Virus record (IMG/VR): IMGVR_UViG_3300020379_000218
Coordinates: 1 to 64,000 of that record
Source of the DNA: a virus
Lineage: Duplodnaviria > Caudoviricetes
Reading direction: 5' to 3' (one strand)
Length of the DNA: 64,000 bases
Part shown: positions 16,720 through 28,676 of the stretch, piece by piece
Numbering within the stretch: position 1 is the stretch's first letter
Layout of the letters: every line of letters starts with the position of its first letter
The notes under the pieces: model-generated
Database searches by the model: none
Seen by the model: only the letters and a program-made list of their open reading frames with translations
What the model was told of the DNA's origin: nothing
Translations under genes and position numbers: made by a program

Positions 16720-16953
16720 ATGTCAAGTAGATATTTAAAAGTTGAAAGTGAAGTAAATTTAGTTAGAGATACACAATCAGGTGGTATTATTAATACTAAT
16801 TCAAGTGAATTTGATTTGTATATGCAAAGAAGAAAATTAAGAGTATCAAGTGCTGACAAAATGAAAGATGTTTGTAGAGAGATAAATACTTTAAAGGCAG
16901 AAATGTTTGAGATAAAAGAATTATTAAAAAATATGTGTAAAGGTAAAGAATAA
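16720..16953 (+). CDS. Small coiled-coil hypothetical protein of T4-like phages
   Basis: KVE...LVRD..SGGIIN...EINTLKAEMFEIKELL; TAATG coupling to next gene. Confidence 0.75.
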   Translation: MSSRYLKVESEVNLVRDTQSGGIINTNSSEFDLYMQRRKLRVSSADKMKDVCREINTLKAEMFEIKELLKNMCKGKE

Positions 16954-18254
16954 TGGCTGTAAGACAGGTAACAGAAACAGATAGTTTAGATAAATTAAGA
17001 ATAGAGTTTAATGCTCTTGCGGCTAATGACTTTGGAGATATTGCAACTCTATCACCAACTTTATCTGCGACTTCTGTAATCGGTGCTGTTAACGAGATTA
17101 ATAGTATTGCGATTGCCGCTGCCGGTTTCATATTATCAGATGGTGTTAATACACAGGCGGTTGCTTCTGGTAACACTATGTTGGTTACTTCTGGTTTAGG
17201 TGTTAATGCAACGGTATCATCACCAGATACTTTAAATATTGCATTAAATAATAACTTATCAGGTTTAAATACAATTGATGTAGGTACTTCTGCTGAAATA
17301 TCAAACATTACAATTTCAACATCATCAATTATTTCTGCAAGTGGAACAATTGATTTTGGTAACGAACAATTAAATACAACAGGTGGTATAAGTGCTGGTG
17401 GTTCATTAGTTGGTTCTACTTTAACACTTAACGGTGCTTCAATGAAATTTGAAGGTGCAACTGCAAACGCATTTGAAACTACTTTAAGAGTAGATGATCC
17501 ATCACAAGACAATATTATTACACTACCAGACATAAGTGGTACCGTTATTACTTCAGGTGATACAGGTACGGTAACTTCTACAATTTTAGCAAACAATGCT
17601 GTAGGTACATCACAAATTGCTGACTCTTCGGTAACGATTGCAAAACTATCAGGATTTGCAAGTGCAACATTAACGGTTGACACTTTAGTTGCAAATACTA
17701 TTACAGGTACTGCTTCATTAGCAACACAAGTAGACATTACTGGTGAGTCCACTACTAACGCAACAAGATATTTAACTTTTGCTGATAATTCATCTGGTGC
17801 AAATACATTAAAAGCGGATTCAAGTTTATACTATAACCCATCTACAAATATTTTAACAACGACTGCTACACAAGCAAGATATGCTGACTTGGCAGAAAAA
17901 TACAAAGCAGATAAAGAATACGAAGTCGGTACGGTATTATGTATCGGTGGAACTGCTGAGGTAACTATATGTACACAAAATCATTGTTCAAAAGTAGTTG
18001 GTGTTGTATCAGAAAAACCTGCCTTTATTATGAACGGCAGTTTAGAAGGTGTAACCGCTACGGTTGCAATGACAGGAAGAGTACCAGTTAAAGTTTGTGG
18101 TCCTGTAAGAAAAGGCGATATGTTAGTATCTTGTGATAAAGCAGGATGTGCTAGAGCAGAAGCAGAACCAAGACCAGGAACATTAATTGGAAAATCATTA
18201 GTCAATGACGATAATTCAGGAGAGAGAATTATAGAAGCAGTTGTTGGTAAATAG
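16953..18254 (+). CDS. Tail fibre protein with C-terminal intramolecular chaperone (Peptidase G2-like autocleavage domain)
   Basis: Thr/Ser/Gly-rich shaft; ARYADLAEKY...VVGVVS..P...VAMTGRVPVKV...KGDMLVS...IGKSL. Confidence 0.8.
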   Translation: MAVRQVTETDSLDKLRIEFNALAANDFGDIATLSPTLSATSVIGAVNEINSIAIAAAGFILSDGVNTQAVASGNTMLVTSGLGVNATVSSPDTLNIALNNNLSGLNTIDVGTSAEISNITISTSSIISASGTIDFGNEQLNTTGGISAGGSLVGSTLTLNGASMKFEGATANAFETTLRVDDPSQDNIITLPDISGTVITSGDTGTVTSTILANNAVGTSQIADSSVTIAKLSGFASATLTVDTLVANTITGTASLATQVDITGESTTNATRYLTFADNSSGANTLKADSSLYYNPSTNILTTTATQARYADLAEKYKADKEYEVGTVLCIGGTAEVTICTQNHCSKVVGVVSEKPAFIMNGSLEGVTATVAMTGRVPVKVCGPVRKGDMLVSCDKAGCARAEAEPRPGTLIGKSLVNDDNSGERIIEAVVGK

Positions 18255-18263
18255 GAGTATATT

Positions 18264-18743
18264 ATGGACGAACAAACCCAATTGTGGATTTCCAGATTAA
18301 AAGAGGAAATTCAATCACACGACAGATACGAAGCAAGACAATTATTCTACATAGATGACGAAGGACTTGACCGTGAGGTTAAAGAACATATGACTTATGG
18401 AGAATGGTTAAGAGAATTTGAAAGATTCAAAACTATCAAGGTGGAAGGTTTAGAAGATGTGGCCTGGTTAAGAGAAGTTTTAGATGAAGTTGTATTGAAT
18501 ATCACAGGTAAGAAAAGACAAGATATTCATTTATTTGTAAATCAAAAACCAGGTGTTAGTTTTAGAGAACACAAAGATGATAAAGATGTTTACTTATATG
18601 TTGTAAAAGGCAAGAAAAAAGTATCATTGAACGGTGAAGTTAAACCAGTATATGATGACGAAGGTATATTGATTGAACAAGGCGTTAAACACTTTGTAGA
18701 TAATGAAGCAGATACTTGGGGGTTAAGTATCGGAGTTGTATAA
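18264..18743 (+). CDS. Cupin/JmjC (Cupin_4, ROX-like) Fe(II)/2OG oxygenase
   Basis: IHLFVN..GVSFREHKDDKDVYLYVVKGKK...GVKH: HxD...H facial triad; GGAG RBS. Confidence 0.75.
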   Translation: MDEQTQLWISRLKEEIQSHDRYEARQLFYIDDEGLDREVKEHMTYGEWLREFERFKTIKVEGLEDVAWLREVLDEVVLNITGKKRQDIHLFVNQKPGVSFREHKDDKDVYLYVVKGKKKVSLNGEVKPVYDDEGILIEQGVKHFVDNEADTWGLSIGVV

Positions 18744-19774
18744 TGAATTGGATGTTTTATCTTAAAACAACCGAGACCTGCAATCTAAATTGTAAACATT
18801 GTTTTACTTCAGGTATCAATGGTCCTAAAGTCTACTGGAATCCAGATAAGATTATCAAGTGGCTTAAAAATTTCAGAAAATATAATTTTCAAAAACACGA
18901 TACAGCACATTTAGAACTACACGGTGGCGAACCGTTTTTAGTTCCTGTGTCTGAAATGCAATATGTCTATGACGCCACAAAGAATTTGTGGGAACAACAA
19001 TCAATGGGCATAACTTCCAATCTAGTTTTCAAACTTAAACAAGAACATATTGACTTTATCAAAGGTCCATTAGGTAATAGATGTGGAACAAGTTGGGATC
19101 CTAATATAAGATTTGCAAATGAGAAACAAGCAAACTTATGGCGTAAGAATGTAGAGACATTAATCGCCGAAGGTGTCAATATTAAACTTTTTATTTCAGT
19201 AACCAAAGACACAATTAGAATTGAACCTATTGAATTACTAAAATGGGTAAGAGATTTGGGTGTAAAAGAAATGGCACTAGAAAGATTGACTGGAAATGGT
19301 AATGCAAACTTACATCCAGAGATATTTCCTAGTAATATAGAACAAGACAAGTGGTTTTTGAAAATGCACGAACAATCTATTGAGTATAATACAAGAGATT
19401 GGTTTGAAAATGAGTTTTTTGAGACAATTTATTCAAAATTTGAGTATGGTTCAACAAAAGATGGCACATTTTGCCGAGATTGTGAACAAAAACTATTTAC
19501 ACTTAACGCAACAGGCACAATAGGCGGTTGTCCTAACGCAGCTCCCGAGTTTAATTTTGGAACTTTAGATGACCCTCTAGTAGAACTTATAAATAGTCCT
19601 AAGAGATTAGAAAATGTTGCTTGTGAAGTGGCAAGGAACCCTAAATGCTTTGATTGTGAAGTATTTAAATATTGTGGAGGCGACTGCCATCAATTAGAAT
19701 GGCAAGGTAATGTATGTGGTGCTCCTAAATCTCTTATGAAGCACTTAAAGAAACAAAGTGAGGCGAAATGGTAA
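18743..19774 (+). CDS. Radical SAM/SPASM enzyme 1
   Basis: CNLNCKHC (CX3CX2C), HGGEP, C-terminal CRDC...GGCP...CFDC..FKYCGGDC...C; TAATG coupling at 18743. Confidence 0.92.
   Translation: MNWMFYLKTTETCNLNCKHCFTSGINGPKVYWNPDKIIKWLKNFRKYNFQKHDTAHLELHGGEPFLVPVSEMQYVYDATKNLWEQQSMGITSNLVFKLKQEHIDFIKGPLGNRCGTSWDPNIRFANEKQANLWRKNVETLIAEGVNIKLFISVTKDTIRIEPIELLKWVRDLGVKEMALERLTGNGNANLHPEIFPSNIEQDKWFLKMHEQSIEYNTRDWFENEFFETIYSKFEYGSTKDGTFCRDCEQKLFTLNATGTIGGCPNAAPEFNFGTLDDPLVELINSPKRLENVACEVARNPKCFDCEVFKYCGGDCHQLEWQGNVCGAPKSLMKHLKKQSEAKW
19588..19595 (+). promoter_or_regulatory. Candidate internal late promoter upstream of the CHxS-repeat gene
   Basis: Exact TATAAATA inside rSAM1, ~170 nt before ATG 19768; could be chance. 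Confidence 0.35.
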
Positions 19775-20541
19775 CTTTAAATAACCCGATAACGAGTCAA
19801 AACATAGTAGATAGATTTGAGGAACTGGTAACTGATATAGCAGACCACCATATTGTATGGGGTACTGATAATTTACCTGGTCACTCGGCATTTTCTGCTT
19901 CTGATTTTGGTGGAGTTGTTGATGGATTTAATCTTAACTTGATAAATGTATCAGGTTCTTATACTCAAAACGAAACCGTAACCGGTTCTATTACAGGTAC
20001 AATAGGTACCGTAGTTAGTTGGTCTAACAATGTATTAAAAGTTAGAAACATAGTACCAGGTTCTGGTCAAACAGGATTTTTACAAAACGATATTATATCT
20101 GGAACTAATTCTGGTGCTGTAGGTTCTGTAAATACTTTTAACGAAGTAAATGCTGTATCTATCGGTATCACAGGTTCATCTATTGGTAATGCAGGTTCAT
20201 TAATTACTGCAAACCAAATTTATACTACACTTAAAAATGAAATGAACACTTATACTAATATTAAAAACACAAACGCTGTAGTTAATATGACAGGTGCAGG
20301 ACAACAATATTCAGATACACAAATTGCACACTTACCAACATCACAAAGAACAACTTTAAATCCAAGTCAACCTAGTAGTTTACAAGCAGGTCAAACTATT
20401 GATGATAACAACTTGGAAGGTTTCTTTTCAACACTTGCAAACTCTTATAATACTGAAAGAGGAAACACTTATACATTGACAAAAACTATTTGCCACAGCA
20501 GTTGCCACGGTAGTTGCCACGGAAGTAGAGGAAGAAGATAA
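19768..20541 (+). CDS. Virion-structural-like protein with C-terminal Cys/His/Ser repeat; putative rSAM substrate
   Basis: Central GSYTQNETVTGSITGTIGTVVSW module like those in gp7/gp8; ends TICHSSCHGSCHGSRGRR; GAGG RBS. Confidence 0.75.
   Translation: MVTLNNPITSQNIVDRFEELVTDIADHHIVWGTDNLPGHSAFSASDFGGVVDGFNLNLINVSGSYTQNETVTGSITGTIGTVVSWSNNVLKVRNIVPGSGQTGFLQNDIISGTNSGAVGSVNTFNEVNAVSIGITGSSIGNAGSLITANQIYTTLKNEMNTYTNIKNTNAVVNMTGAGQQYSDTQIAHLPTSQRTTLNPSQPSSLQAGQTIDDNNLEGFFSTLANSYNTERGNTYTLTKTICHSSCHGSCHGSRGRR
20491..20526 (+). repeat. 3 x 12-nt tandem repeat encoding (C-H-x-S)3
   Basis: tgccacagcagt tgccacggtagt tgccacggaagt. Confidence 0.95.
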
Positions 20542-21233
20542 TGATTGAATCTATAGTACCAATTGAATTAAAAGACTTAAAAAAATACTTTGAAGACAAA
20601 ACAGAAACTTATCTATTAGACTATGAAAACAGCACATTGAAAGGTGCTCAGTTTTTGACATATTTAAGTAATTTAGATATACCTTGTGATATTAAGAATA
20701 TGGACGAAGAACTAATAAGTGAGTATCTTAAATCTCAAATGTTAGTTAGTATACCTAAATTAGAGAAAGAAATAATTGCTGTATTATTTGAACACAAAGG
20801 GTTGACAAAGACAGATAAATATAAGAGTGTTATAGAAGAGAACAAAGAGATACTTGACAAATGGGCAGGTAAATTAGAAAGTCTACCATTATATAATATG
20901 TCAATTGTCGGTGAAGGTGCTTTCAATGATTTTGTTGAGAGTTATCCTAAAGACGAAACAGAAGATGTAAGAGGTATCAACTTTGTTTCATTATTGAAAC
21001 ACAAAGAATTTTATAGTTATTATCAAATGCCAAAAGAAAACATTGTTAAGAATTATACAAAGTACTTTAAAGAATATATGTTTAAAGGTAAATCTTTATT
21101 TGAATATTGGGCAAACGCAAGTAACCCATTATTCTTAATGACTTGGGCAGTTGCTGAAGGCAAGTTTGATAGTAAAGAATATAACAAAAGGAAAATGGAA
21201 GGTGTACAAAATCTTCCACTAGAGAGTAAATAA
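20541..21233 (+). CDS. Hypothetical protein in rSAM cluster
   Basis: 230-aa ORF, TAATG-coupled to the CHxS gene; no recognisable motif. Confidence 0.8.
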   Translation: MIESIVPIELKDLKKYFEDKTETYLLDYENSTLKGAQFLTYLSNLDIPCDIKNMDEELISEYLKSQMLVSIPKLEKEIIAVLFEHKGLTKTDKYKSVIEENKEILDKWAGKLESLPLYNMSIVGEGAFNDFVESYPKDETEDVRGINFVSLLKHKEFYSYYQMPKENIVKNYTKYFKEYMFKGKSLFEYWANASNPLFLMTWAVAEGKFDSKEYNKRKMEGVQNLPLESK

Positions 21234-21234
21234 T

Positions 21235-22350
21235 ATGCTACACTTATTTAATAAAGTTTATTTAGCGTTTGACGATTCAATAGATTGTCATACTAACAGA
21301 TATGTAATATCAGAAGAAGTTGGTAATGAAATGCACCAAGAACTTCAAAGTACATATAGAGGTAGTTTACTTAATTACGCAAAAAATAAAAACGAAATGC
21401 AAGGTAAGTTTGGTGACTTAACTGGTTTCTTTGAAGATGTAAATACTAAACAGAAATCATTAGGAACTAAAGTTATCATTTACTGCGATAGTCAAGCATA
21501 CCTAGAAATATCTGTAACCTGGTTAAAAACTATGTTGCCGTATGCTGAAAGTGCTGAAATACAAAAGTTTTTAGATATTCATTTACACCACGAAAAAATT
21601 ATTGCAAATACACAACTACAACCTACTCATACTTTAGCACTAACTAAATTAAATTCAGGATTAGGAAATGTAAGTGGTTATTTCAATGTTTTACCAACAC
21701 TTGATATAGATAGAATAAAAGCTCTTAATTTAAATTTCTCAATTGAATTATTGTTAGGCGAATACTTTGCTGGTGCTGATACTCACCAAGCAAATTTATT
21801 GTCTACTTGGCATATGTTCTTAAAAAGATTTTATAAAGAAGTGTTGACAGATAGTAGAGAAGGTGCTGCTCTTAATCTTTTAAATAGTAATCAACAAACT
21901 GCGTTAGGTTATACTAGTGATGATGTTGATTTGAATGCTGATAATCCATTTACAGGAATTACACCATTAGCACCATTTGCTGACGAAGATGTATTCACAC
22001 AAAAACCTACTGCAACGGTCGGTGCTGTGAATATTGCAAACATAGATGGTCTTTCTACAGAAAAACAAACTGCATTGAAAACTTTAGTTAAAGACTTATA
22101 TGATTTCCAGAACTCTCCGGATCCTGATTACTTTATGAACCATTTAGATAAAGCTTGTGATTCAAGTTTATCTGCTGAAGATTTTGATACAATTATTACT
22201 GAAACGGTGAATAGTCCATCTAGTCTATCTTATATCCCTAGATTTGATATTGGAAATATAAACTATACTTTCTTACAATATCTTTTCTCATTGAAAAAAT
22301 CTAACGATACAGACACATTAGGAAAATACAGACTATTCGCAAACTCATAG
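21235..22350 (+). CDS. Hypothetical protein in rSAM cluster
   Basis: 371-aa ORF; KVIIYCD weakly recalls a degenerate protein-phosphatase P-loop. Confidence 0.8.
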   Translation: MLHLFNKVYLAFDDSIDCHTNRYVISEEVGNEMHQELQSTYRGSLLNYAKNKNEMQGKFGDLTGFFEDVNTKQKSLGTKVIIYCDSQAYLEISVTWLKTMLPYAESAEIQKFLDIHLHHEKIIANTQLQPTHTLALTKLNSGLGNVSGYFNVLPTLDIDRIKALNLNFSIELLLGEYFAGADTHQANLLSTWHMFLKRFYKEVLTDSREGAALNLLNSNQQTALGYTSDDVDLNADNPFTGITPLAPFADEDVFTQKPTATVGAVNIANIDGLSTEKQTALKTLVKDLYDFQNSPDPDYFMNHLDKACDSSLSAEDFDTIITETVNSPSSLSYIPRFDIGNINYTFLQYLFSLKKSNDTDTLGKYRLFANS

Positions 22351-22358
22351 GAGTTTAA

Positions 22359-23411
22359 ATGCGAGAGTTTTTAATAGACCCGAAAAGAGACCCAGAGCAA
22401 GAGTACACAATTCACTTATTTGAATTTTGTAATCTGCGTTGTGCTTTCTGTTGGCAAAACCACGAAGATACAATCGGTATTGATAATGTGGTTGATAAAC
22501 TTCCATCTATAGAAAAATTTGTTTCAAAAGAAATGTATATGAAAGTCACCTTTAATATTATGGGTGGCGAAGTCTTTGCACCTGCAATCTATAACAGAAA
22601 TTTAAACGAAGGTTATAAACTTCTATCAAAAGGCATACAAAAGATATGTCAAAGGTACGATAAAGAATTTTCAATCAATTGGGTATCTAACTTGGTTACA
22701 TCACCTGATGGTAATGAACTCATTATGGACTTACTTAAATGGTCCAGAGAAGAAGATATACCTTGTAGACTTACAACAAGTTATGACCCACGAGGTAGAT
22801 TTAATAAAAAAGACTTTGAGATATTTAAATCTAATGTAGAATATTGGGGTGATGAAGTTACCTGTTTCTCTTGTCTACTTACAAAACCTAATATAAACTT
22901 TTATTTAAATGAAGGCGATGAATACTTTGATTATTTGTATAATCAAGGTAAGTACATATATTTTGATTATTATATGCCAGATGAACACGCAAAATATAAT
23001 ATGCCTAGTGATGAACTATTATTAAAGTTTTTTAAACATTGTGTTGACAAATATCCAAATGTTCATCCTGTAAGAGACTGGATATTTAATAAAAAGAATT
23101 ATGCAAGTTGTAGAGTATCTAAACTTGTTTTAGCAGATGGTACATTATGTCAATGTGGTAACCTTGTACAAGATGAGAAATCATTAAGTCAATATAAGTC
23201 GCCCATTAAAAGAAAAGACAATAGTATTATAGAAAACTCTTTCCTAGAGAAATATAATTGTAGTAGTTGTGAATTTTTAGATAGATGTACACTTGGCTGT
23301 TTTATGAACCACGATTATAGATATAAGGAGGAGTTGGATGAATGTGTTTACAAACTTACGCACAGATATATTGAAGATGTACGACTACAGCGAAACTATA
23401 TCGCAAACTAA
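22359..23411 (+). CDS. Radical SAM/SPASM enzyme 2
   Basis: CNLRCAFC, MGGEVF, C-terminal C...DGTLCQC...CSSCEFLDRCTLGC...C; GGAG RBS. Confidence 0.92.
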   Translation: MREFLIDPKRDPEQEYTIHLFEFCNLRCAFCWQNHEDTIGIDNVVDKLPSIEKFVSKEMYMKVTFNIMGGEVFAPAIYNRNLNEGYKLLSKGIQKICQRYDKEFSINWVSNLVTSPDGNELIMDLLKWSREEDIPCRLTTSYDPRGRFNKKDFEIFKSNVEYWGDEVTCFSCLLTKPNINFYLNEGDEYFDYLYNQGKYIYFDYYMPDEHAKYNMPSDELLLKFFKHCVDKYPNVHPVRDWIFNKKNYASCRVSKLVLADGTLCQCGNLVQDEKSLSQYKSPIKRKDNSIIENSFLEKYNCSSCEFLDRCTLGCFMNHDYRYKEELDECVYKLTHRYIEDVRLQRNYIAN

Positions 23412-23967
23412 TTATTTCAATTTTCCTAAACATATAGAAGTACAACTAGATAACTTTCCTGTAGAGAAACCATATCTACCTAGAATAGATGGTAGACAAG
23501 CACATATGTTTTTATGGTTAGGCAAGAAAGAAGAAGATGGTGAACTATATGAGATTGCAAAGAAAACTAAAGGCGAAAGACAATGGGTTCAAAACAAGAC
23601 GCCAGGCACATTTATTAAGGGCGTAGGAATGTTTCATATCTATGACGAGTATGTTATAGTCGGTTCTTTGAAATATGCCGGTTATATGAAGAATAGACCT
23701 GCAAAAGAAAATAGACATTTAATAAGAACTATGTGGTGTGAGACTATAAACATATTTAAAGATAAAGATATATTGTGTCCTTCAGGTACTTACTTTGATT
23801 GGTTACATTTAACAATGAATCAAATGAGAGCACAAAAAGAACCATATCATAGAGAAATAATGTGGCAGTTTGGATTTGATAAAATTGTTGAAGGTAAATT
23901 AAAAGATTATTGGATTAGAAGAAAAGAAAATAAAACTGGACTTGACTGGATAGGAAGATGGACTTAA
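23338..23967 (+). CDS. Hypothetical protein in rSAM cluster (alternative start 23377)
   Basis: 209-aa ORF; AAGGAGGAG before ATG; overlaps both neighbours. Confidence 0.7.
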   Translation: MNVFTNLRTDILKMYDYSETISQTNYFNFPKHIEVQLDNFPVEKPYLPRIDGRQAHMFLWLGKKEEDGELYEIAKKTKGERQWVQNKTPGTFIKGVGMFHIYDEYVIVGSLKYAGYMKNRPAKENRHLIRTMWCETINIFKDKDILCPSGTYFDWLHLTMNQMRAQKEPYHREIMWQFGFDKIVEGKLKDYWIRRKENKTGLDWIGRWT

Positions 23968-25052
23968 TTATAAAACCTACTGAACTTTGTAATTTTAAGT
24001 GTACCTTTTGTTCAAGTACACAACTTACAAATGAGAAAAAGAACTGGTTGAAACACGACCAGATATTTCGTTTTTTAGAAAGATTTCCAGAAACTAAAAC
24101 TATAATAGTAAATGGTGGTGACCCATTGATGATGGCACCTGATTACTACTGGAAGATTATTGAATGGTTAGATAATAAAGGTTATGATACTTCACTTGCA
24201 TTAACAACTAACTTGTGGCCTTTCTATAAGAAACCTAAACTATGGGTTGACTTATTTAATAATGATAGAGTAGGTATTACAACTTCTTTTCAATATGGTG
24301 GTGGTAGATTAAAAGGAGACTATTCAGAATTTACAGAAGAAGACTTTTGGAAGTGTTCAGATACTATGTTAGAGTATTGTGGTTATAGACCAGATTTTAT
24401 ATCTGTTATCACAAGAGAAAATGAACACAACGCAATTAAGAATGTTGAACTTGCAAAAAGAATGTCAGAAGATAAAATGCCAGAAGGTACTTTACATAAC
24501 TTTTGGCGAGAAGAAAAGACAGGCGTAGAATGTAAGTTAAATTATGCAATGGCAAGTGGTGAACAAAAAGAGCCTTTTTTGTTATCAGATATATATGAGA
24601 AGTATGTAGAAATCTATAGGGCAGGTTTAGCACCTTGGGAGTTTAATACTAGACAGATGATGTTAGCAATCAACGATAGTGCTACAAGTTGTCCGTTAAG
24701 TAGAAAATGTGATGAAGGTATTAGATGTTTACAACCAGATGGCGATTACTATAGTTGTGGTGCTTTTGGTGATGATAAAGATAAGTCTATAGATTTTGAA
24801 GAAGAAATGAAAGGTAAGTTTTTTACACCTTTACAAGATAGTTTAGAGTTAACTACAATGAAAAAGAATTGTTATAGTTGCCCTATGTTTAATATATGTA
24901 ATGGTTGTAGAAAGACAATTAAAGATTATAAAGAAGCAGGAGTTGTAGAAAAACATTGTGAGAAAATGAAAAGAATAGGACACGATATTTTAATCGCAAA
25001 TAATAAACCTCACATATCAATGACACCTTATGAGAGAGAATATGCAAGTTAA
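23958..25052 (+). CDS. Radical SAM/SPASM enzyme 3
   Basis: IIKPTELCNFKCTFC, NGGDP, C-terminal CPLSRKC...DGDYYSC...CYSCPMFNICNGC...C. Confidence 0.92.
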   Translation: MDLIIKPTELCNFKCTFCSSTQLTNEKKNWLKHDQIFRFLERFPETKTIIVNGGDPLMMAPDYYWKIIEWLDNKGYDTSLALTTNLWPFYKKPKLWVDLFNNDRVGITTSFQYGGGRLKGDYSEFTEEDFWKCSDTMLEYCGYRPDFISVITRENEHNAIKNVELAKRMSEDKMPEGTLHNFWREEKTGVECKLNYAMASGEQKEPFLLSDIYEKYVEIYRAGLAPWEFNTRQMMLAINDSATSCPLSRKCDEGIRCLQPDGDYYSCGAFGDDKDKSIDFEEEMKGKFFTPLQDSLELTTMKKNCYSCPMFNICNGCRKTIKDYKEAGVVEKHCEKMKRIGHDILIANNKPHISMTPYEREYAS

Positions 25053-25494
25053 ACATAATGTATTAACAAACTTGGAACTTAATCATATGATAAGTGAACT
25101 AGGTAATCTAGGCAAAGATTATCCTATCTATGAAAAGAATGTACATAAGAAATTACCAGATGATTGGAAATGGGCAGATAGTATCTGTAAATTAAATGTA
25201 CCTAATGTAAAACATTGTATCGTTAGGTATGTTATCGCTGTAAATAGTAAAGATGAAGAAAAGAATATTATAGGGTTTCATACAGACAGCGATGTAAAAG
25301 GAGAAAAAACTATTATATTATATTTACAAGGTGATAGTAATAAAGGTGGTCAAATACAAGTTGAAGATAAGACTTATGACTTTAGACAAAACGCAATGTT
25401 TATTATGGACTCTCATTTAGTACATAGGGCAATGCCTTATTGGGGAGAAAAAACAAGACTTGCAATTAAATGGAGATGGACTTGTGAGGGGTGA
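25030..25494 (+). CDS. 2OG-Fe(II) oxygenase (start possibly 25042)
   Basis: FHTDSD...IILYL...GGQ...LVHRA...R: HxD...H...R. Confidence 0.8.
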   Translation: MRENMQVKHNVLTNLELNHMISELGNLGKDYPIYEKNVHKKLPDDWKWADSICKLNVPNVKHCIVRYVIAVNSKDEEKNIIGFHTDSDVKGEKTIILYLQGDSNKGGQIQVEDKTYDFRQNAMFIMDSHLVHRAMPYWGEKTRLAIKWRWTCEG

Positions 25495-26005
25495 ACACGA
25501 TTTATCAAACTTAATAATAAATGGAGTATGGCCACATAAAGACCTTGCACCTTTTAAATTCTTTGAAGGTGTACAGATACCTTTTGTAGAAACGAAAGGA
25601 GAGTATACGGTTGCTGTTCATACTGAAAAGGTTGCACACGCACTTACCACAACCCACAAATATTTGGGTGATAAATATATTAGTAAGTTGTCTAGTAGAT
25701 ATACATTACACGGACGACCTGAAATTGTCAATGGTGTAGATAAAGAAAGTACACTTTGGCACAATGACTTGAAAGAAGGAGCAAACATTGCTATATTAAT
25801 GTACTTTACAAATGCTTGTAATAAGAAACAAGGTGGTTCTTTATCAGTTAGAAATAAAGAAACAAAAGAATTATCTTGTTGGTTATATCCAGGTAAGAAC
25901 GATTTAATATTTTTAAATCATAGTAAAGTATGGGAACATAGAGTTGGTAAATTCAAACTAATTGATAGTGAAAGAATTGTAGGATGTTTTAATTATAATA
26001 TATGA
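25484..26005 (+). CDS. 2OG-Fe(II) oxygenase
   Basis: WHND...ILMYF...GGSL...WEHRV...RIV; GTG start with GGAG RBS. Confidence 0.8.
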   Translation: MRGEHDLSNLIINGVWPHKDLAPFKFFEGVQIPFVETKGEYTVAVHTEKVAHALTTTHKYLGDKYISKLSSRYTLHGRPEIVNGVDKESTLWHNDLKEGANIAILMYFTNACNKKQGGSLSVRNKETKELSCWLYPGKNDLIFLNHSKVWEHRVGKFKLIDSERIVGCFNYNI

Positions 26006-26577
26006 AAAATAAGATATTTCCAAACGGCAGAATACACGCCTCAAAAGAACAAGATTTAGATTACTCAAATGGATACCTTGCGTTATCAGTAAGTCCATTT
26101 GACAATAACTTTGACAATGAAGTTGAGAAAGGTGTATTACCTCATTGCCACGCACTTATTAGAAAAGGTTATCTTCCAATATCAAGTTGCGAAGGACACT
26201 TTACTAAAAAACACCATATGCCATTTTATGTAATGTTAGCAGTTGGTGGTAAAAACAAATTAGATAGAATATACGATATAATAAACAAGACAAAACATAT
26301 ACCTGGTATATCATATAAAATTAAAGAACAACAAGCAAATGTAAGAGGTGAACTATTAGAAAGAGTAAACTATAGTTTAGATAAAGCAGAAGAGTATGCT
26401 GAACTAAACAGATTGTTTATGAGAAATCATTTAGAGTATAATTATCTCTGGATAGGTTTATTTCAAAGTGATAAGAAATTATCAGAAAGAATTTTAAGAA
26501 GACTTATGTTTAGTAGATGTAAGAAAATGTTATTGAATAGTATTGAGGTGTTGAACTATGACGAAGCCGAAGATTAA
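26002..26577 (+). CDS. Hypothetical protein with SSCEGH motif
   Basis: ALIRKGYLPISSCEGH; ATGA coupling. Confidence 0.75.
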   Translation: MKNKIFPNGRIHASKEQDLDYSNGYLALSVSPFDNNFDNEVEKGVLPHCHALIRKGYLPISSCEGHFTKKHHMPFYVMLAVGGKNKLDRIYDIINKTKHIPGISYKIKEQQANVRGELLERVNYSLDKAEEYAELNRLFMRNHLEYNYLWIGLFQSDKKLSERILRRLMFSRCKKMLLNSIEVLNYDEAED

Positions 26578-27505
26578 TCTGTCAATCAATCCATCTTATT
26601 TTTGTAATTTTAGATGTCCTTGGTGTTATCTAAAACCTGAACAATTAGGTGACCAAAAATGTATTGACCATTTTAAATTAAGTGAACTATTAAATGAAGT
26701 ACAAACTCATAGAGATATAGAACACATTGATTTATATGGTGGTGAGATAGGCGTATTAAAAGAAGGTGCATTAGAAAAAATCACAAATGCAATTAAGATA
26801 TACTATAAAGAAAAGATTAACATAAACACTAACTTATCTATGATGAGAGAAGAGTTTATGAATCCTGATTATTTTATTAGTGTTAGTTATGATATGGAGA
26901 GTAGAGAAGAAAACGAAAAAGTATGGAACAATATGATGAAACTGCCTGTTCCTTTTTCTGTTTTGATACTTGCAAATGAAAAAGTATTAAAAACATCAAC
27001 TCAACATATATGGTCTAAAATGATACACTTGACTAAAGACAATCAAAACTTTCAAGGATTTGAAATTAAACCTTATAGTACTAATCAGGCAAACCAACAT
27101 CCTATCACTCACGCACATTTTGAAGACTTTATATTAAGAATGGTAGAGACTAAACCTAACCAATGTCCTGTACATTTTATTAATGAAGACAATATTAAAG
27201 ACTCTCTTAATAGTAGTTATAACGCATACAGCGATGACCATTTATATATTACACCTAATGGTAAGTTTGCTGTATTAGATTTTGATAAAGACGATAATGA
27301 ATATTTTTTAGAACTTGATAGTTTTGCTGATTACGAAGTATGGTGTCAGAAAGAAAAAGAACAAAACATTTCCGATATATGTCGTAAGTGTGAATATCTA
27401 GGTAGATGTCTAACTGAACATTACAGATATGTTAAAAGTCTAAAAGATGGTTGCAATGGGTATAGGTATCTGTTGGATACTTATTCGTTTAAATATGGCA
27501 AATAG
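26558..27505 (+). CDS. Radical SAM enzyme 4 with reduced SPASM-like domain
   Basis: CNFRCPWC, YGGEIG, C-terminal CRKCEYLGRCLTEH...GC; GAGG RBS. Confidence 0.9.
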   Translation: MTKPKINLSINPSYFCNFRCPWCYLKPEQLGDQKCIDHFKLSELLNEVQTHRDIEHIDLYGGEIGVLKEGALEKITNAIKIYYKEKININTNLSMMREEFMNPDYFISVSYDMESREENEKVWNNMMKLPVPFSVLILANEKVLKTSTQHIWSKMIHLTKDNQNFQGFEIKPYSTNQANQHPITHAHFEDFILRMVETKPNQCPVHFINEDNIKDSLNSSYNAYSDDHLYITPNGKFAVLDFDKDDNEYFLELDSFADYEVWCQKEKEQNISDICRKCEYLGRCLTEHYRYVKSLKDGCNGYRYLLDTYSFKYGK

Positions 27506-28283
27506 AGCATTTTGTATCGGTAACGGAACAAGTAGAAAAGGTTTTAAATTTTCTACTATCAAAGGACGAGGTGTTATATTAGGTTGTAATAATCTCTATA
27601 AAGATTTTGCACCTGATATTCTAGTCGCAATGAAACATCCTGTTATGCACAAAATTTATCAATCAGGTTATGGTTATACTGCTAGATGTTATTTTAGAGA
27701 TTGGGCACCTAACACACACGAAAGATATGAGACTATGTTAAATAGTTTCTTTCCTGGGTATAGACATTTACGAGCAATCAGACAATCAGGTCTACTTAAA
27801 GAAAATCAACGAGTAGGTTCTGATAGATTTTGTTTACACGGATATGATGATGAAGGACAAAGAAAAGTTAATGTAAGTTGGTTGACAGATGACCTAGTAA
27901 AAAATTTTACAGACATACAGAAAACACCTGAACAAACAGAATGGGCAACAGGTCCTGCAAGTGGTTATGTTGCTTGTAAAGAGATAGCAGAATTAAAAGA
28001 AGTGTATCTAATTGGACACGACATATATAGTATGTCAAATAAATTTAATAACATATATGCCGGACAAGAATTTTATAAACAAGATACACACCCTAGTCAA
28101 TACTATTTACAAAACTGGATATTTCAATGGCGTCAACTCTTCAAGTGGTACCATTGGGTTAAGTTTTATAAAGTAAATAGAAAGGCTATGTTAAATGTCA
28201 ATATTCCGGAGTGGAATGAATGTAGAAATTTGGAGTATATAAGTTATGAAAGAATGGAAGCTCAAACAAGAAGTATATCATAG
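27495..28283 (+). CDS. Nucleotide-sugar-transferase-like protein (Maf/DUF115/GT29-type fold)
   Basis: AFCIGNGTSR...GCNNLYKDFAPDILVA...WATG...VYLIGHD. Confidence 0.6.
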   Translation: MANRAFCIGNGTSRKGFKFSTIKGRGVILGCNNLYKDFAPDILVAMKHPVMHKIYQSGYGYTARCYFRDWAPNTHERYETMLNSFFPGYRHLRAIRQSGLLKENQRVGSDRFCLHGYDDEGQRKVNVSWLTDDLVKNFTDIQKTPEQTEWATGPASGYVACKEIAELKEVYLIGHDIYSMSNKFNNIYAGQEFYKQDTHPSQYYLQNWIFQWRQLFKWYHWVKFYKVNRKAMLNVNIPEWNECRNLEYISYERMEAQTRSIS

Positions 28284-28656
28284 ATTAAATCCTACTCATA
28301 AAGATACATTGAACGATAAGGAGATATATCTTATATGGGAAGATAATGATATAATTCTAAATGCAAAAAGACATTGGGTAGAACAGGTAGATAGATTTAT
28401 CTATCCTGCAAAGAGTTATTGCGTAGCGATATGTTATGCAAAGTGGATAGAGAGAGATTATGGAGATAACTTTTACGACTTGTTAAACGATAAAGACTTG
28501 TTGTATGGTAATGACCCTTACTTTGAAATATACAATGGGAAGAAACACATTTATGACCCAATCATAGAAGCGTTTCCTAAAGATGAACAATTGGGAATGA
28601 TACCAGATATTAGAGACTATTATGAAAAAGAAATACGATATGACGGTGGAATCTAA
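28246..28656 (+). CDS. Hypothetical protein ending the rSAM cluster
   Basis: 136-aa ORF overlapping previous gene; YPAKSYCVAICYA. Confidence 0.75.
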   Translation: MKEWKLKQEVYHRLNPTHKDTLNDKEIYLIWEDNDIILNAKRHWVEQVDRFIYPAKSYCVAICYAKWIERDYGDNFYDLLNDKDLLYGNDPYFEIYNGKKHIYDPIIEAFPKDEQLGMIPDIRDYYEKEIRYDGGI

Positions 28657-28668
28657 TATAAGAACTGG

Positions 28669-28676
28669 TATAAATA
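28669..28676 (+). promoter_or_regulatory. T4-type late promoter
   Basis: TATAAATA followed by AAGGAG RBS. Confidence 0.8.

Follow-up and report, generated by a model that had tools for sequence, protein, structure and literature searches.

A conserved phage cassette pairs four radical SAM enzymes with a structural protein whose nearly invariant Cys-His tail they may modify

Why should a phage carry four radical S-adenosylmethionine (SAM) enzymes next to the genes for its fibres, and on what would these enzymes act? We addressed this question in a stretch of 64,000 nt of a marine T4-like phage (the window), taken from the 109.5-kb IMG/VR record IMGVR_UViG_3300020379_000218, which is estimated to be 59% complete. 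At 18264-28656 the window holds a cassette of 14 open reading frames (ORFs), every one on the + strand and meeting the next at a junction that overlaps or spans 1-9 nt. The genes are labelled A to N in order; B, F, H and L encode the radical SAM enzymes rSAM1 to rSAM4, C encodes the tail protein, and U1 is the fibre-like protein encoded upstream. An earlier note made from the sequence alone had described 14 co-oriented, overlapping or near-abutting genes, which the ORF coordinates bear out, and had proposed a dedicated multi-enzyme system directed at a phage protein that would probably remain full-length in the virion. In silico, this proposal was supported by the co-occurrence of enzymes and tail protein, by translational coupling, by selection on the tail, by a cassette in which no peptidase or exporter family was found and by the presence of gp170, the C orthologue of phage Atu_ph07, in virions. 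We consider it likely that radical SAM enzymes resembling anSME and without a RiPP recognition element (RRE; RiPP, a peptide that is made by the ribosome and then modified after translation) modify the tail of a fibre-associated structural protein.

The presumed substrate, C, is a 257-aa protein of virion type (19768..20541, + strand). As had been noted for this gene, it ends in (CHxS)3-RGRR: its terminus is TICHSSCHGSCHGSRGRR, its C-terminal tryptic peptide is ...TICHSSCHGSCHGSR, and the tail composed of CHSS, CHGS, CHGS and RGRR (20491..20538, +), which we presume to be the site of modification, contains the only Cys residues of the protein. C has a family-specific fold with an inserted beta-barrel at residues 52-129. 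AlphaFold2 (AF2) predicted its structure with a mean confidence (pLDDT, predicted local distance difference test) of 79, reaching more than 90 over residues 130-245 and showing the tail as a low-confidence helix. No clear match for this fold was found in the PDB (Foldseek E above 0.4; VIA-align Z of at most 5.3, on the inserted barrel only) and no match in NCBIfam, and in BFVD C matched only unannotated members of its own family, including Atu_ph07 gp170.

When the phage collection was searched for near-identical DNA and for related proteins, neither the entire cluster nor C gave a match. Because C is too divergent outside its low-complexity tail, a pattern scan was needed, and we scanned IMG/VR with the back-translated tail motif. 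The pattern retrieved 99 viral loci, with a chance expectation of about 1e-3 by our own estimate, which assumes about 1e11 bases. In 128 of the 128 ORFs found, the motif formed the exact C-terminus, with three to five repeats and protein bodies of 125-326 aa, and many phages carried two tandem C paralogues. A profile search of 1.84 billion representatives yielded a C family of 867 clusters at 50% identity; among the best 150 of these, 136 end exactly in (CHxx)3-R-x-RR. In the family alignment, the Cys, the His and the R-x-RR do not vary, whereas mean column identity over the rest of C is 15%. Judged from these sequences, the tail is under extreme purifying selection while the body of C diverges. 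The Ser of the CHxS repeat, which the earlier note had written into the motif, is not invariant: position 4 is Ser in about 88% of repeats and otherwise Asn or Ala, and Ser had looked invariant in the first alignment because the search pattern itself imposed it.

Since the pattern scan presupposed the motif, we ran the converse search from rSAM1. Relatives in the rSAM1-alignment search were found on at least 362 viral contigs, and of the best 80 rSAM1 loci, 75 extend 1.2 kb or more downstream and every one of these encodes a protein that terminates in (CHxx)3-R-x-RR. The co-occurrence of these enzymes with the repeat, which had been suggested as a check, was thus seen at each of the best rSAM1 loci with enough flank. 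Motif loci with no detected radical SAM gene numbered 22; all are short fragments of the type U1-C-C-D, with the enzymes about 8-10 kb away, and three of five contigs with U1-C-C-D loci hold rSAM3 elsewhere. The overall gene order is U3-U2-U1-A-B-C-D-[E]-F-[G]-H-[I/J]-[K]-L-[M]-N, with A, B, C, D, F, H, L and N as the core set. D, a 230-aa core partner (phrog_20767; 20541..21233, +), follows C in 70 of the 79 loci with at least 1 kb downstream, and in the window the stop and start of C and D form a TAATG junction, indicating translational coupling.

The same arrangement is present in cultured phages. A tblastn search with rSAM1 returned proteins of 42-52% identity in jumbo phages of Sinorhizobium, Agrobacterium, Ralstonia, Burkholderia and Pseudomonas, and in the jumbo phages of the last four genera the core order of cupin, rSAM1, C, D, rSAM2, rSAM3, rSAM4 and N is kept. 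Phages RSL2, Atu_ph07 and pPa_SNUABM_DT01 each encode, in the order seen in the window, a cupin, a radical SAM enzyme and a protein ending in CHSSCHTSCHGSRGRR, CHSSCHASCHNSRSRR or CHTSCHTSCHSARGRR, followed by more radical SAM genes. In these three phages, as in the window, the cassette lies between fibre or baseplate genes, and all cultured carriers infect Gram-negative Pseudomonadota. The locus of pPa_SNUABM_DT01, a P. aeruginosa jumbo phage (MW735835.1 47610-66605), is an enlarged version of the cassette in a tractable host; there the cupin-rSAM-tail trio adjoins the central-spike gene, and the submitters annotated seven radical SAM genes, six of them downstream of the tail protein, and two 2-oxoglutarate (2OG) oxygenases. 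A further locus was observed on NZIN01000021.1, a 32.5-kb contig of the metagenome-assembled genome 'Rickettsiales bacterium MED606', which carries U3-U2-U1-A-B-C-D-E-F-G in the same order. The contig is probably of phage origin and was grouped with a low-GC marine alphaproteobacterium, a placement that is possibly a hint to the host or simply a binning error.

What kind of enzymes are the four radical SAM proteins? All are core members of the cassette: rSAM1 (B, 18716..19774, +), rSAM2 (F, 22359..23411, +), rSAM3 (H, 23958..25052, +; the most conserved) and rSAM4 (L, 26558..27505, +). Each carries CX3CX2C within its first 31 residues (C22/C26/C29, C24/C28/C31, C11/C15/C18 and C16/C20/C23, respectively) and a GGE motif, or GGD in rSAM3; these three Cys and GGE/GGD are kept at 90% or more in the family alignments of all four. 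All four match PF04055, with E-values of 2e-7 to 8e-4 and only rSAM3 exceeding the gathering score (32.0 vs 29.5), and all match phrog_1802 strongly (4e-41 for rSAM2 and 9e-31 for rSAM4). For the C-termini, we tested for the SPASM pattern of seven to eight Cys that hold two auxiliary clusters (CX9-15GX4C ... CX2CX5CX3C ... C). rSAM1 passed the SPASM model TIGR04085 (31.8 bits vs a cut-off of 27) with eight Cys that are invariant in its family alignment (C253/256/272/311/314/320/324/334). rSAM2 and rSAM3 fell below this cut-off (21.0 and 22.7 bits) with the Cys pattern kept in seven and eight C-terminal Cys, respectively. rSAM4 gave no TIGR04085 match and does not keep the full SPASM set; its conserved C-terminal Cys are C275/C278/C284/C299 only, a number that fits one auxiliary cluster at most. 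Thus, from the earlier picture of four radical SAM enzymes with SPASM-like C-termini, CX3CX2C stands for all four and the SPASM sets for three, with rSAM4 reduced.

The enzymes start at the CX3CX2C motif, which leaves no space for an RRE. Among PDB entries, the best full-length relative of rSAM1 and rSAM3 is anSME (4K36-4K39), and the nearest NCBIfam families of the four enzymes are DynA, PapB, anSME, HxsB/C, ChlB, CteB and cyclophane synthases. By sequence, these enzymes are of the SPASM peptide- or protein-maturase kind. They form four clades, each with phage and bacterial members, with support of 0.80-0.999 (0.999 for the rSAM2 clade), and this separation argues for four distinct conserved roles. 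Within the maturase kind they stand apart from the characterized families. Every NCBIfam equivalog model of a known maturase scored far below its cut-off, by 10-20-fold; TIGR03974, NF047865, TIGR04496, NF041707 and TIGR04269 gave 17-44 bits against cut-offs of 340-450, which places the four outside the SCIFF, ranthipeptide, sactipeptide and triceptide families. The classification that the earlier note had called for thus returned a SPASM match for rSAM1, with the SCIFF and His-Xaa-Ser maturase models far below cut-off.

That C is a particle protein is indicated by Atu_ph07, whose gene numbering we confirmed by recomputing protein masses. In purified virions of this phage, gp170 (31.89 kDa) was identified by 8 peptides at 35% coverage, and the U1 homologue gp176 (66.07 kDa) and the neighbouring gp177 (21.66 kDa) are also in the virion proteome; the radical SAM enzymes gp171, gp168 and gp165, the cupin gp172 and the D protein gp169 are absent from the virion list (PMC6102473 Table S5). 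The same table reports gp170 in gel bands 1-9 with its peak in band 1, at the top of the gel, while most other virion proteins of about 30 kDa have their peak in bands 7-8 or further down and the 137-kDa wedge protein peaks in band 2. We found that gp170 is the only well-supported protein below 40 kDa on this list to peak in band 1, a behaviour that fits a covalent or sodium dodecyl sulfate (SDS)-resistant multimer.

The cassette is also present in bacterial genomes. Of the 16 contigs of species-representative genomes on which the tail pattern occurs, at least eight are Bdellovibrionota metagenome-assembled genomes that carry all of the enzymes; members of the Bdellovibrionota are predators of Gram-negative cells. 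One copy of the cassette lies on a 1.29-Mb Halobacteriovoraceae contig, where its neighbours are genes for a serine dehydratase, an Mrp/NUBPL ATPase, YchF and an SLT transglycosylase; within 60 kb of it, none of the other proteins of the window phage has a match. Given these housekeeping flanks and the lack of further phage matches, we rejected a prophage origin and read the copy as chromosomal. A fibre-like protein with Peptidase_S74 (endosialidase-chaperone) adjoins this cassette, and a relative of it adjoins the cassette of a second genome. Separately, we observed a highly conserved protein of about 512-525 aa that belongs to no Pfam family and lies within or next to the cassettes of two Halobacteriovoraceae genomes and of one Flavobacteriaceae-labelled 223-kb contig (L120:17370-18908, - strand; L124:1148-2725, -; L116:4179-5720, +; E about 1e-129), which may be an extra member of the cellular version of the cassette.

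How might these components work together? In the explanation that we favour, the cassette would serve to mature a structural protein used in cell attack. C would be made late and would enter the particle, probably alongside U1 in the baseplate or a fibre. Its C-terminal (C-H-x-S)3-R-x-R-R would be worked on by the enzymes ahead of assembly or while it proceeds. The actors would be B, F, H and L, which, like anSME, have no RRE and would act on a folded protein; the cupin A, the 2OG oxygenases and the partners D and N would help. Each radical SAM enzyme would cleave SAM to generate a 5'-deoxyadenosyl radical that takes a hydrogen from a tail residue, and the oxygenases would probably hydroxylate. 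Cross-links, if these are what results, would rigidify the tail or lock it between subunits. As for the chemistry, C-S and/or C-C cross-links, in the form of Cys thioethers or of His-C2-to-C-beta cyclophanes on H-x-S and accompanied by oxygenase hydroxylation, are our leading but tentative guess, which we hold at slightly short of an even chance. An anSME-like oxidation of Cys or Ser to formylglycine seems improbable, and the remainder of our expectation goes to other chemistries.

Several points weigh against this explanation. A modification has been observed on no member of the family, and co-occurrence is no proof of an enzyme-substrate pairing. Four radical SAM enzymes for three repeats are unexplained, and tails with four to five repeats also come with four. 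Because the equivalog scores lie so far below their cut-offs, no chemistry can be transferred to these enzymes from known maturases. The evidence from virions was obtained in a single phage, and its C and the C of the window have no more in common than the family fold and the tail. The migration of gp170 in band 1 could be that of a disulfide-linked or SDS-resistant oligomer, and disulfides must be reckoned with since the described loading buffer names no reductant. Finally, D, N and E have no recognizable function in Pfam or NCBIfam, nor in fold searches for D or in the ESM Atlas for D and N.

A bolder version of the favoured explanation is that the radical SAM enzymes and oxygenases build a cross-linked Cys/His knot on the structural protein. 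This knot would be a metal-binding or redox centre, would possibly join subunits covalently and, placed on the attack fibres of phages and Bdellovibrionota, would be needed to engage or breach the outer envelope. We regard this as clearly less likely than not; if true, it would mean that a radical cross-link or cofactor installed by enzymes had been recognized in a virus particle for the first time. In a still bolder variant, overlapping C-x3-C-H units could serve as attachment sites for a tetrapyrrole-like ligand. The tail of the window protein contains two such overlapping units at 20491-20526 (CHSSCH and CHGSCH), which are formally like variant c-type haem attachment motifs; this likeness may be coincidental, because the phage is assembled in the cytoplasm and most carriers have no haem genes nearby.

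Could the tail instead do its work with no help from the enzymes? It might be a native metal-binding or disulfide module, with ligands for Zn, Fe, Cu or an Fe-S cluster on a trimer axis, that the radical SAM enzymes leave alone, and the target of these enzymes would then be U1 or a different virion protein, or else a glycan or small molecule. Three Cys-His pairs at a period of four are classic metal ligands, and T4 fibres have HxH iron sites to which the tail might be likened. In the same vein, the high-molecular-weight migration of gp170 could be mediated by disulfides or metal, as no reductant is listed. No modification is shown, and U1 is linked as tightly as C. Against this, the tail gene accompanies rSAM1 at 75 of 75 loci and is translationally coupled, and the pairing of enzymes and tail persists in bacterial loci where U1 was not detected. 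Moreover, the strong preference for Ser or Asn at position 4 and the fixed R-x-RR are not obviously needed by a simple metal site. We therefore judge an unmodified metal or disulfide module to be unlikely.

An alternative that fares worse is a classical RiPP or cofactor pathway, in which the tail, once modified, is cleaved from C and set free as a small peptide, metallophore or redox cofactor, and the remainder of C is an outsized leader or scaffold. The core motif does sit at the extreme C-terminus, which is also where MftA- and PqqA-type precursors carry their core; the basic R-x-RR end could be a processing handle, and radical SAM/SPASM enzymes with oxygenases are typical RiPP tailoring sets. 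The body of C, however, is folded, conserved and present in virions, and the genes lie in late structural operons. As had been noted before, no leader peptidase or exporter is visible: we found no peptidase, exporter or transporter family among the 14 cassette genes, six of which have no assignable family. A released product is, on this balance, very doubtful. We give the least credence, close to none, to the idea that the enzymes serve nucleic-acid or nucleotide modification or host reprogramming as auxiliary metabolic genes that lie beside C by chance: phage radical SAM enzymes do take part in DNA hypermodification (PMC8989533), marine T4-like genomes do carry many Fe-S genes (PMC5332604) and the N-terminal radical SAM cores weakly match viperin and MoaA models, but these matches are confined to the generic CX3CX2C region (among the anti-phage defence models of PADLOC, only viperin was matched, over about 60-100 N-terminal residues, and A, C, D, E and N gave no match), the full-length likeness is to SPASM protein and peptide maturases and not to the cofactor- or nucleotide-modifying groups that the earlier note had named as a way to refute it, the cassette has no nucleotide-handling domains, and its linkage to C is strict across unrelated phages and bacteria.

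If the tail of C is modified in the way we favour, how does the cassette compare with known systems? The closest described system is the HXS antiphage system, in which the radical SAM enzymes HxsB and HxsC, together with HxsD, mature full-length HxsA on its HxS repeats, with a change of +8 Da on SHRSS (Li et al., Nat Commun 2026, PMC13128918). The earlier statement that no system of this kind had been characterized thus needs qualification, since HXS is a case of radical SAM maturation of a full-length HxS-repeat protein, and it stands insofar as the cassette is not a member of HXS. Both systems combine several radical SAM enzymes with a small non-enzymatic partner, use tandem His-x-Ser-type repeats and have a product that acts as a protein and is not released. 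However, HXS defends bacteria, nearly all of them Pseudomonadota, and its effector is exported to the periplasm, whereas the presumed substrate of the cassette is virion- or fibre-associated and belongs to phages and predators. The HXS repeats have a period of 3, contain no Cys and are not C-terminal, whereas those of the cassette contain Cys and are C-terminal; and HXS has two radical SAM enzymes and no oxygenases, against four with oxygenases in the cassette. In tests of the HxsB (TIGR03978) and HxsC (TIGR03977) models, rSAM1 scored 32.6 vs 370 bits and rSAM3 30.9 vs 267.9 bits, over the N-terminal core only. The HxsA model (TIGR03979) did not match C, and the HxsD model (TIGR03976) matched none of D, E, G, N and U1 at E up to 1; a six-frame HxsD search of the phage record gave no match, but its controls gave none either.

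In its enzymes, the cassette is most like anSME (PDB 4K36-4K39), a minimal radical SAM plus SPASM protein of about 350-370 aa that has no RRE and acts on Cys or Ser of a whole folded protein. It differs in that anSME is a single enzyme with a sulfatase as substrate, whereas the cassette has four paralogues, three repeats, an invariant His and no sulfatase gene; the anaerobic sulfatase maturase model TIGR03942 scored 35.3 bits vs 349. The last repeat, C-H-G-S-R, loosely recalls the sulfatase motif C-x-P/A-x-R. Another precedent for a retained product is QhpD/QhpC of quinohemoprotein amine dehydrogenase, where a radical SAM/SPASM enzyme installs several Cys thioether cross-links on a small subunit that stays in place. 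This system, which we liken to the cassette by description only, differs in having one enzyme, Cys-to-Asp/Glu links and the context of an enzyme complex.

The triceptide synthases HaaB, YhhB and HtkB form His-C2-to-C-beta links on repeated H-x-x motifs, often three per precursor (PMC11499958). The H-x-S of the tail fits this H-x-x template; however, triceptide substrates are short, leader-bearing peptides, and the invariant tail Cys has no role in triceptide chemistry. The YhhB, XyeB and FxsB models matched the cassette enzymes over the generic N-terminal core only, far below their cut-offs. The SCIFF/ranthipeptide and sactipeptide maturases are likewise SPASM radical SAM enzymes and form thioether cross-links on Cys-rich cores, but they work with an RRE, a short precursor and export, whereas the cassette has no RRE, a presumed substrate of 125-326 aa and no export; TIGR03974 gave 21 vs 425 bits and the PapB model 36 vs 340 bits.

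As we read it, the cassette is a case of radical SAM maturation of a ribosomally made protein. In the literature on the motif string, on phage radical SAM enzymes and on virion RiPPs we found no description of it, and papers on jumbo phages list annotations only. Virion proteins are generally thought to be finished by folding, by proteolysis and by a few autocatalytic or glycosyl modifications, and phage assembly would gain a new layer if a dedicated set of radical enzymes worked on one of the proteins of the particle. That phages and predatory bacteria have the cassette in common points to a shared requirement for attacking Gram-negative cells, in which the tail may serve at the envelope of host or prey. 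Four new families of RRE-less radical SAM enzymes with a presumed protein substrate would also be of interest for enzymology and protein engineering. Culturable models are at hand in Atu_ph07, RSL2/RSF1, the Burkholderia FLC phages and the P. aeruginosa phage pPa_SNUABM_DT01.

What do the other genes of the cassette contribute? Three oxygenases with HxD...H triads had been proposed, and this holds for A and J, with I weaker. A (18264..18743, +) is a 159-aa core cupin (Cupin_2, 28.8 vs a cut-off of 27.2) whose triad H103, D105 and H143 is conserved at 90% or more in its family alignment, and it adjoins rSAM1 in phages and in Bdellovibrionota. J (25460..26005, +), a 181-aa 2OG-Fe(II) oxygenase that is frequent in cassettes, falls just short of the cut-off for 2OG-FeII_Oxy_3 (25.7 vs 27) and keeps H101, D103, H160 and R172. 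I (25030..25494, +) is a 154-aa accessory protein and probably an Fe(II)/2OG-type oxygenase (Asp_Arg_Hydrox E 0.012; phrog_274 4e-12); it has an FHTD motif with conserved H132 and R143, and is a weaker candidate than A and J.

The remaining proteins, D, E, G, K, M and N, matched no Pfam or NCBIfam family. The predicted AF2 structure of D has a pLDDT of 89, and searches with it gave no usable match (Foldseek E above 0.2; VIA-align Z of at most 4.2, on residues 1-54 only); a profile search of the PDB with D was also without a match. For D and N, ESM Atlas scores of at most 0.82 were at chance level and gave no lead, and a complex prediction for C with D, which scored 0.06, gave no answer and weighs neither way. 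N (28246..28656, +) is a 136-aa core protein (phrog_20737). The accessory proteins are E (371 aa; 21235..22350, +), found in many but not all cassettes, G (209 aa; 23338..23967, +), found in close marine relatives only, K (191 aa; 26002..26577, +) and M (278 aa; 27447..28283, +; phrog_30607).

Where does the cassette sit, and when might it be expressed? Upstream of it are encoded a structural protein of 2037 aa, a virion protein of 77 aa and U1, and downstream an LtfC-like fibre-assembly protein and a 578-aa fibre-like protein. U1 is a 433-aa fibre-like virion protein (16953..18254, +) with weak PHROG tail-fibre matches and homology to Atu_ph07 gp176; in most loci it is linked to the tail-protein gene, with the synteny U1-(A-B)-C or U1-C-C-D. 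The cassette had been placed between a tail-fibre gene and a late promoter. The promoter side of this claim is backed by the box TATAAATA at 28669..28676 (+), a late-promoter-like element that closes the cassette ahead of the fibre-assembly-like genes; on the other side, the upstream gene is fibre-like through its weak PHROG matches only. A second TATAAATA, a T4-type late-promoter-like box, lies inside rSAM1 at 19588..19595 (+), 180 nt 5' of the start of C. All 14 exact boxes in the window are on the + strand, including those at 2554, 7426, 9097, 19588, 28669, 29311 and 32090. Their total is not above that of shuffled sequences (mean 9.8), and their strand bias fits T4-type late promoters driving the whole structural region.

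At least 82% of sampled words of 18264-28200 were present in 14 marine metagenome runs from seven studies between 2014 and 2025. This phage lineage can therefore be called both widespread in the sea and persistent there, and the cassette family is present in abundant marine phages. In RNA libraries, contigs of one run, from the same sample as a run that holds the DNA, matched stretches of A, B/C, C, D, E and N with an identity of 99% or more, and two other runs contained relatives of 90-95% over most of the cluster. Because such libraries can contain DNA and the contigs show neither strand nor level, we do not count these contigs as proof of expression, and they are only a hint that the cluster is transcribed; stretches that no contig covers carry no meaning. 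As a last observation, M, which matched no family model and is present only in the closest relatives, begins with a short extension followed by a CIGNGTS-like glycine-rich motif, which recalls nucleotide-sugar enzymes of the DUF115/sialyltransferase type.

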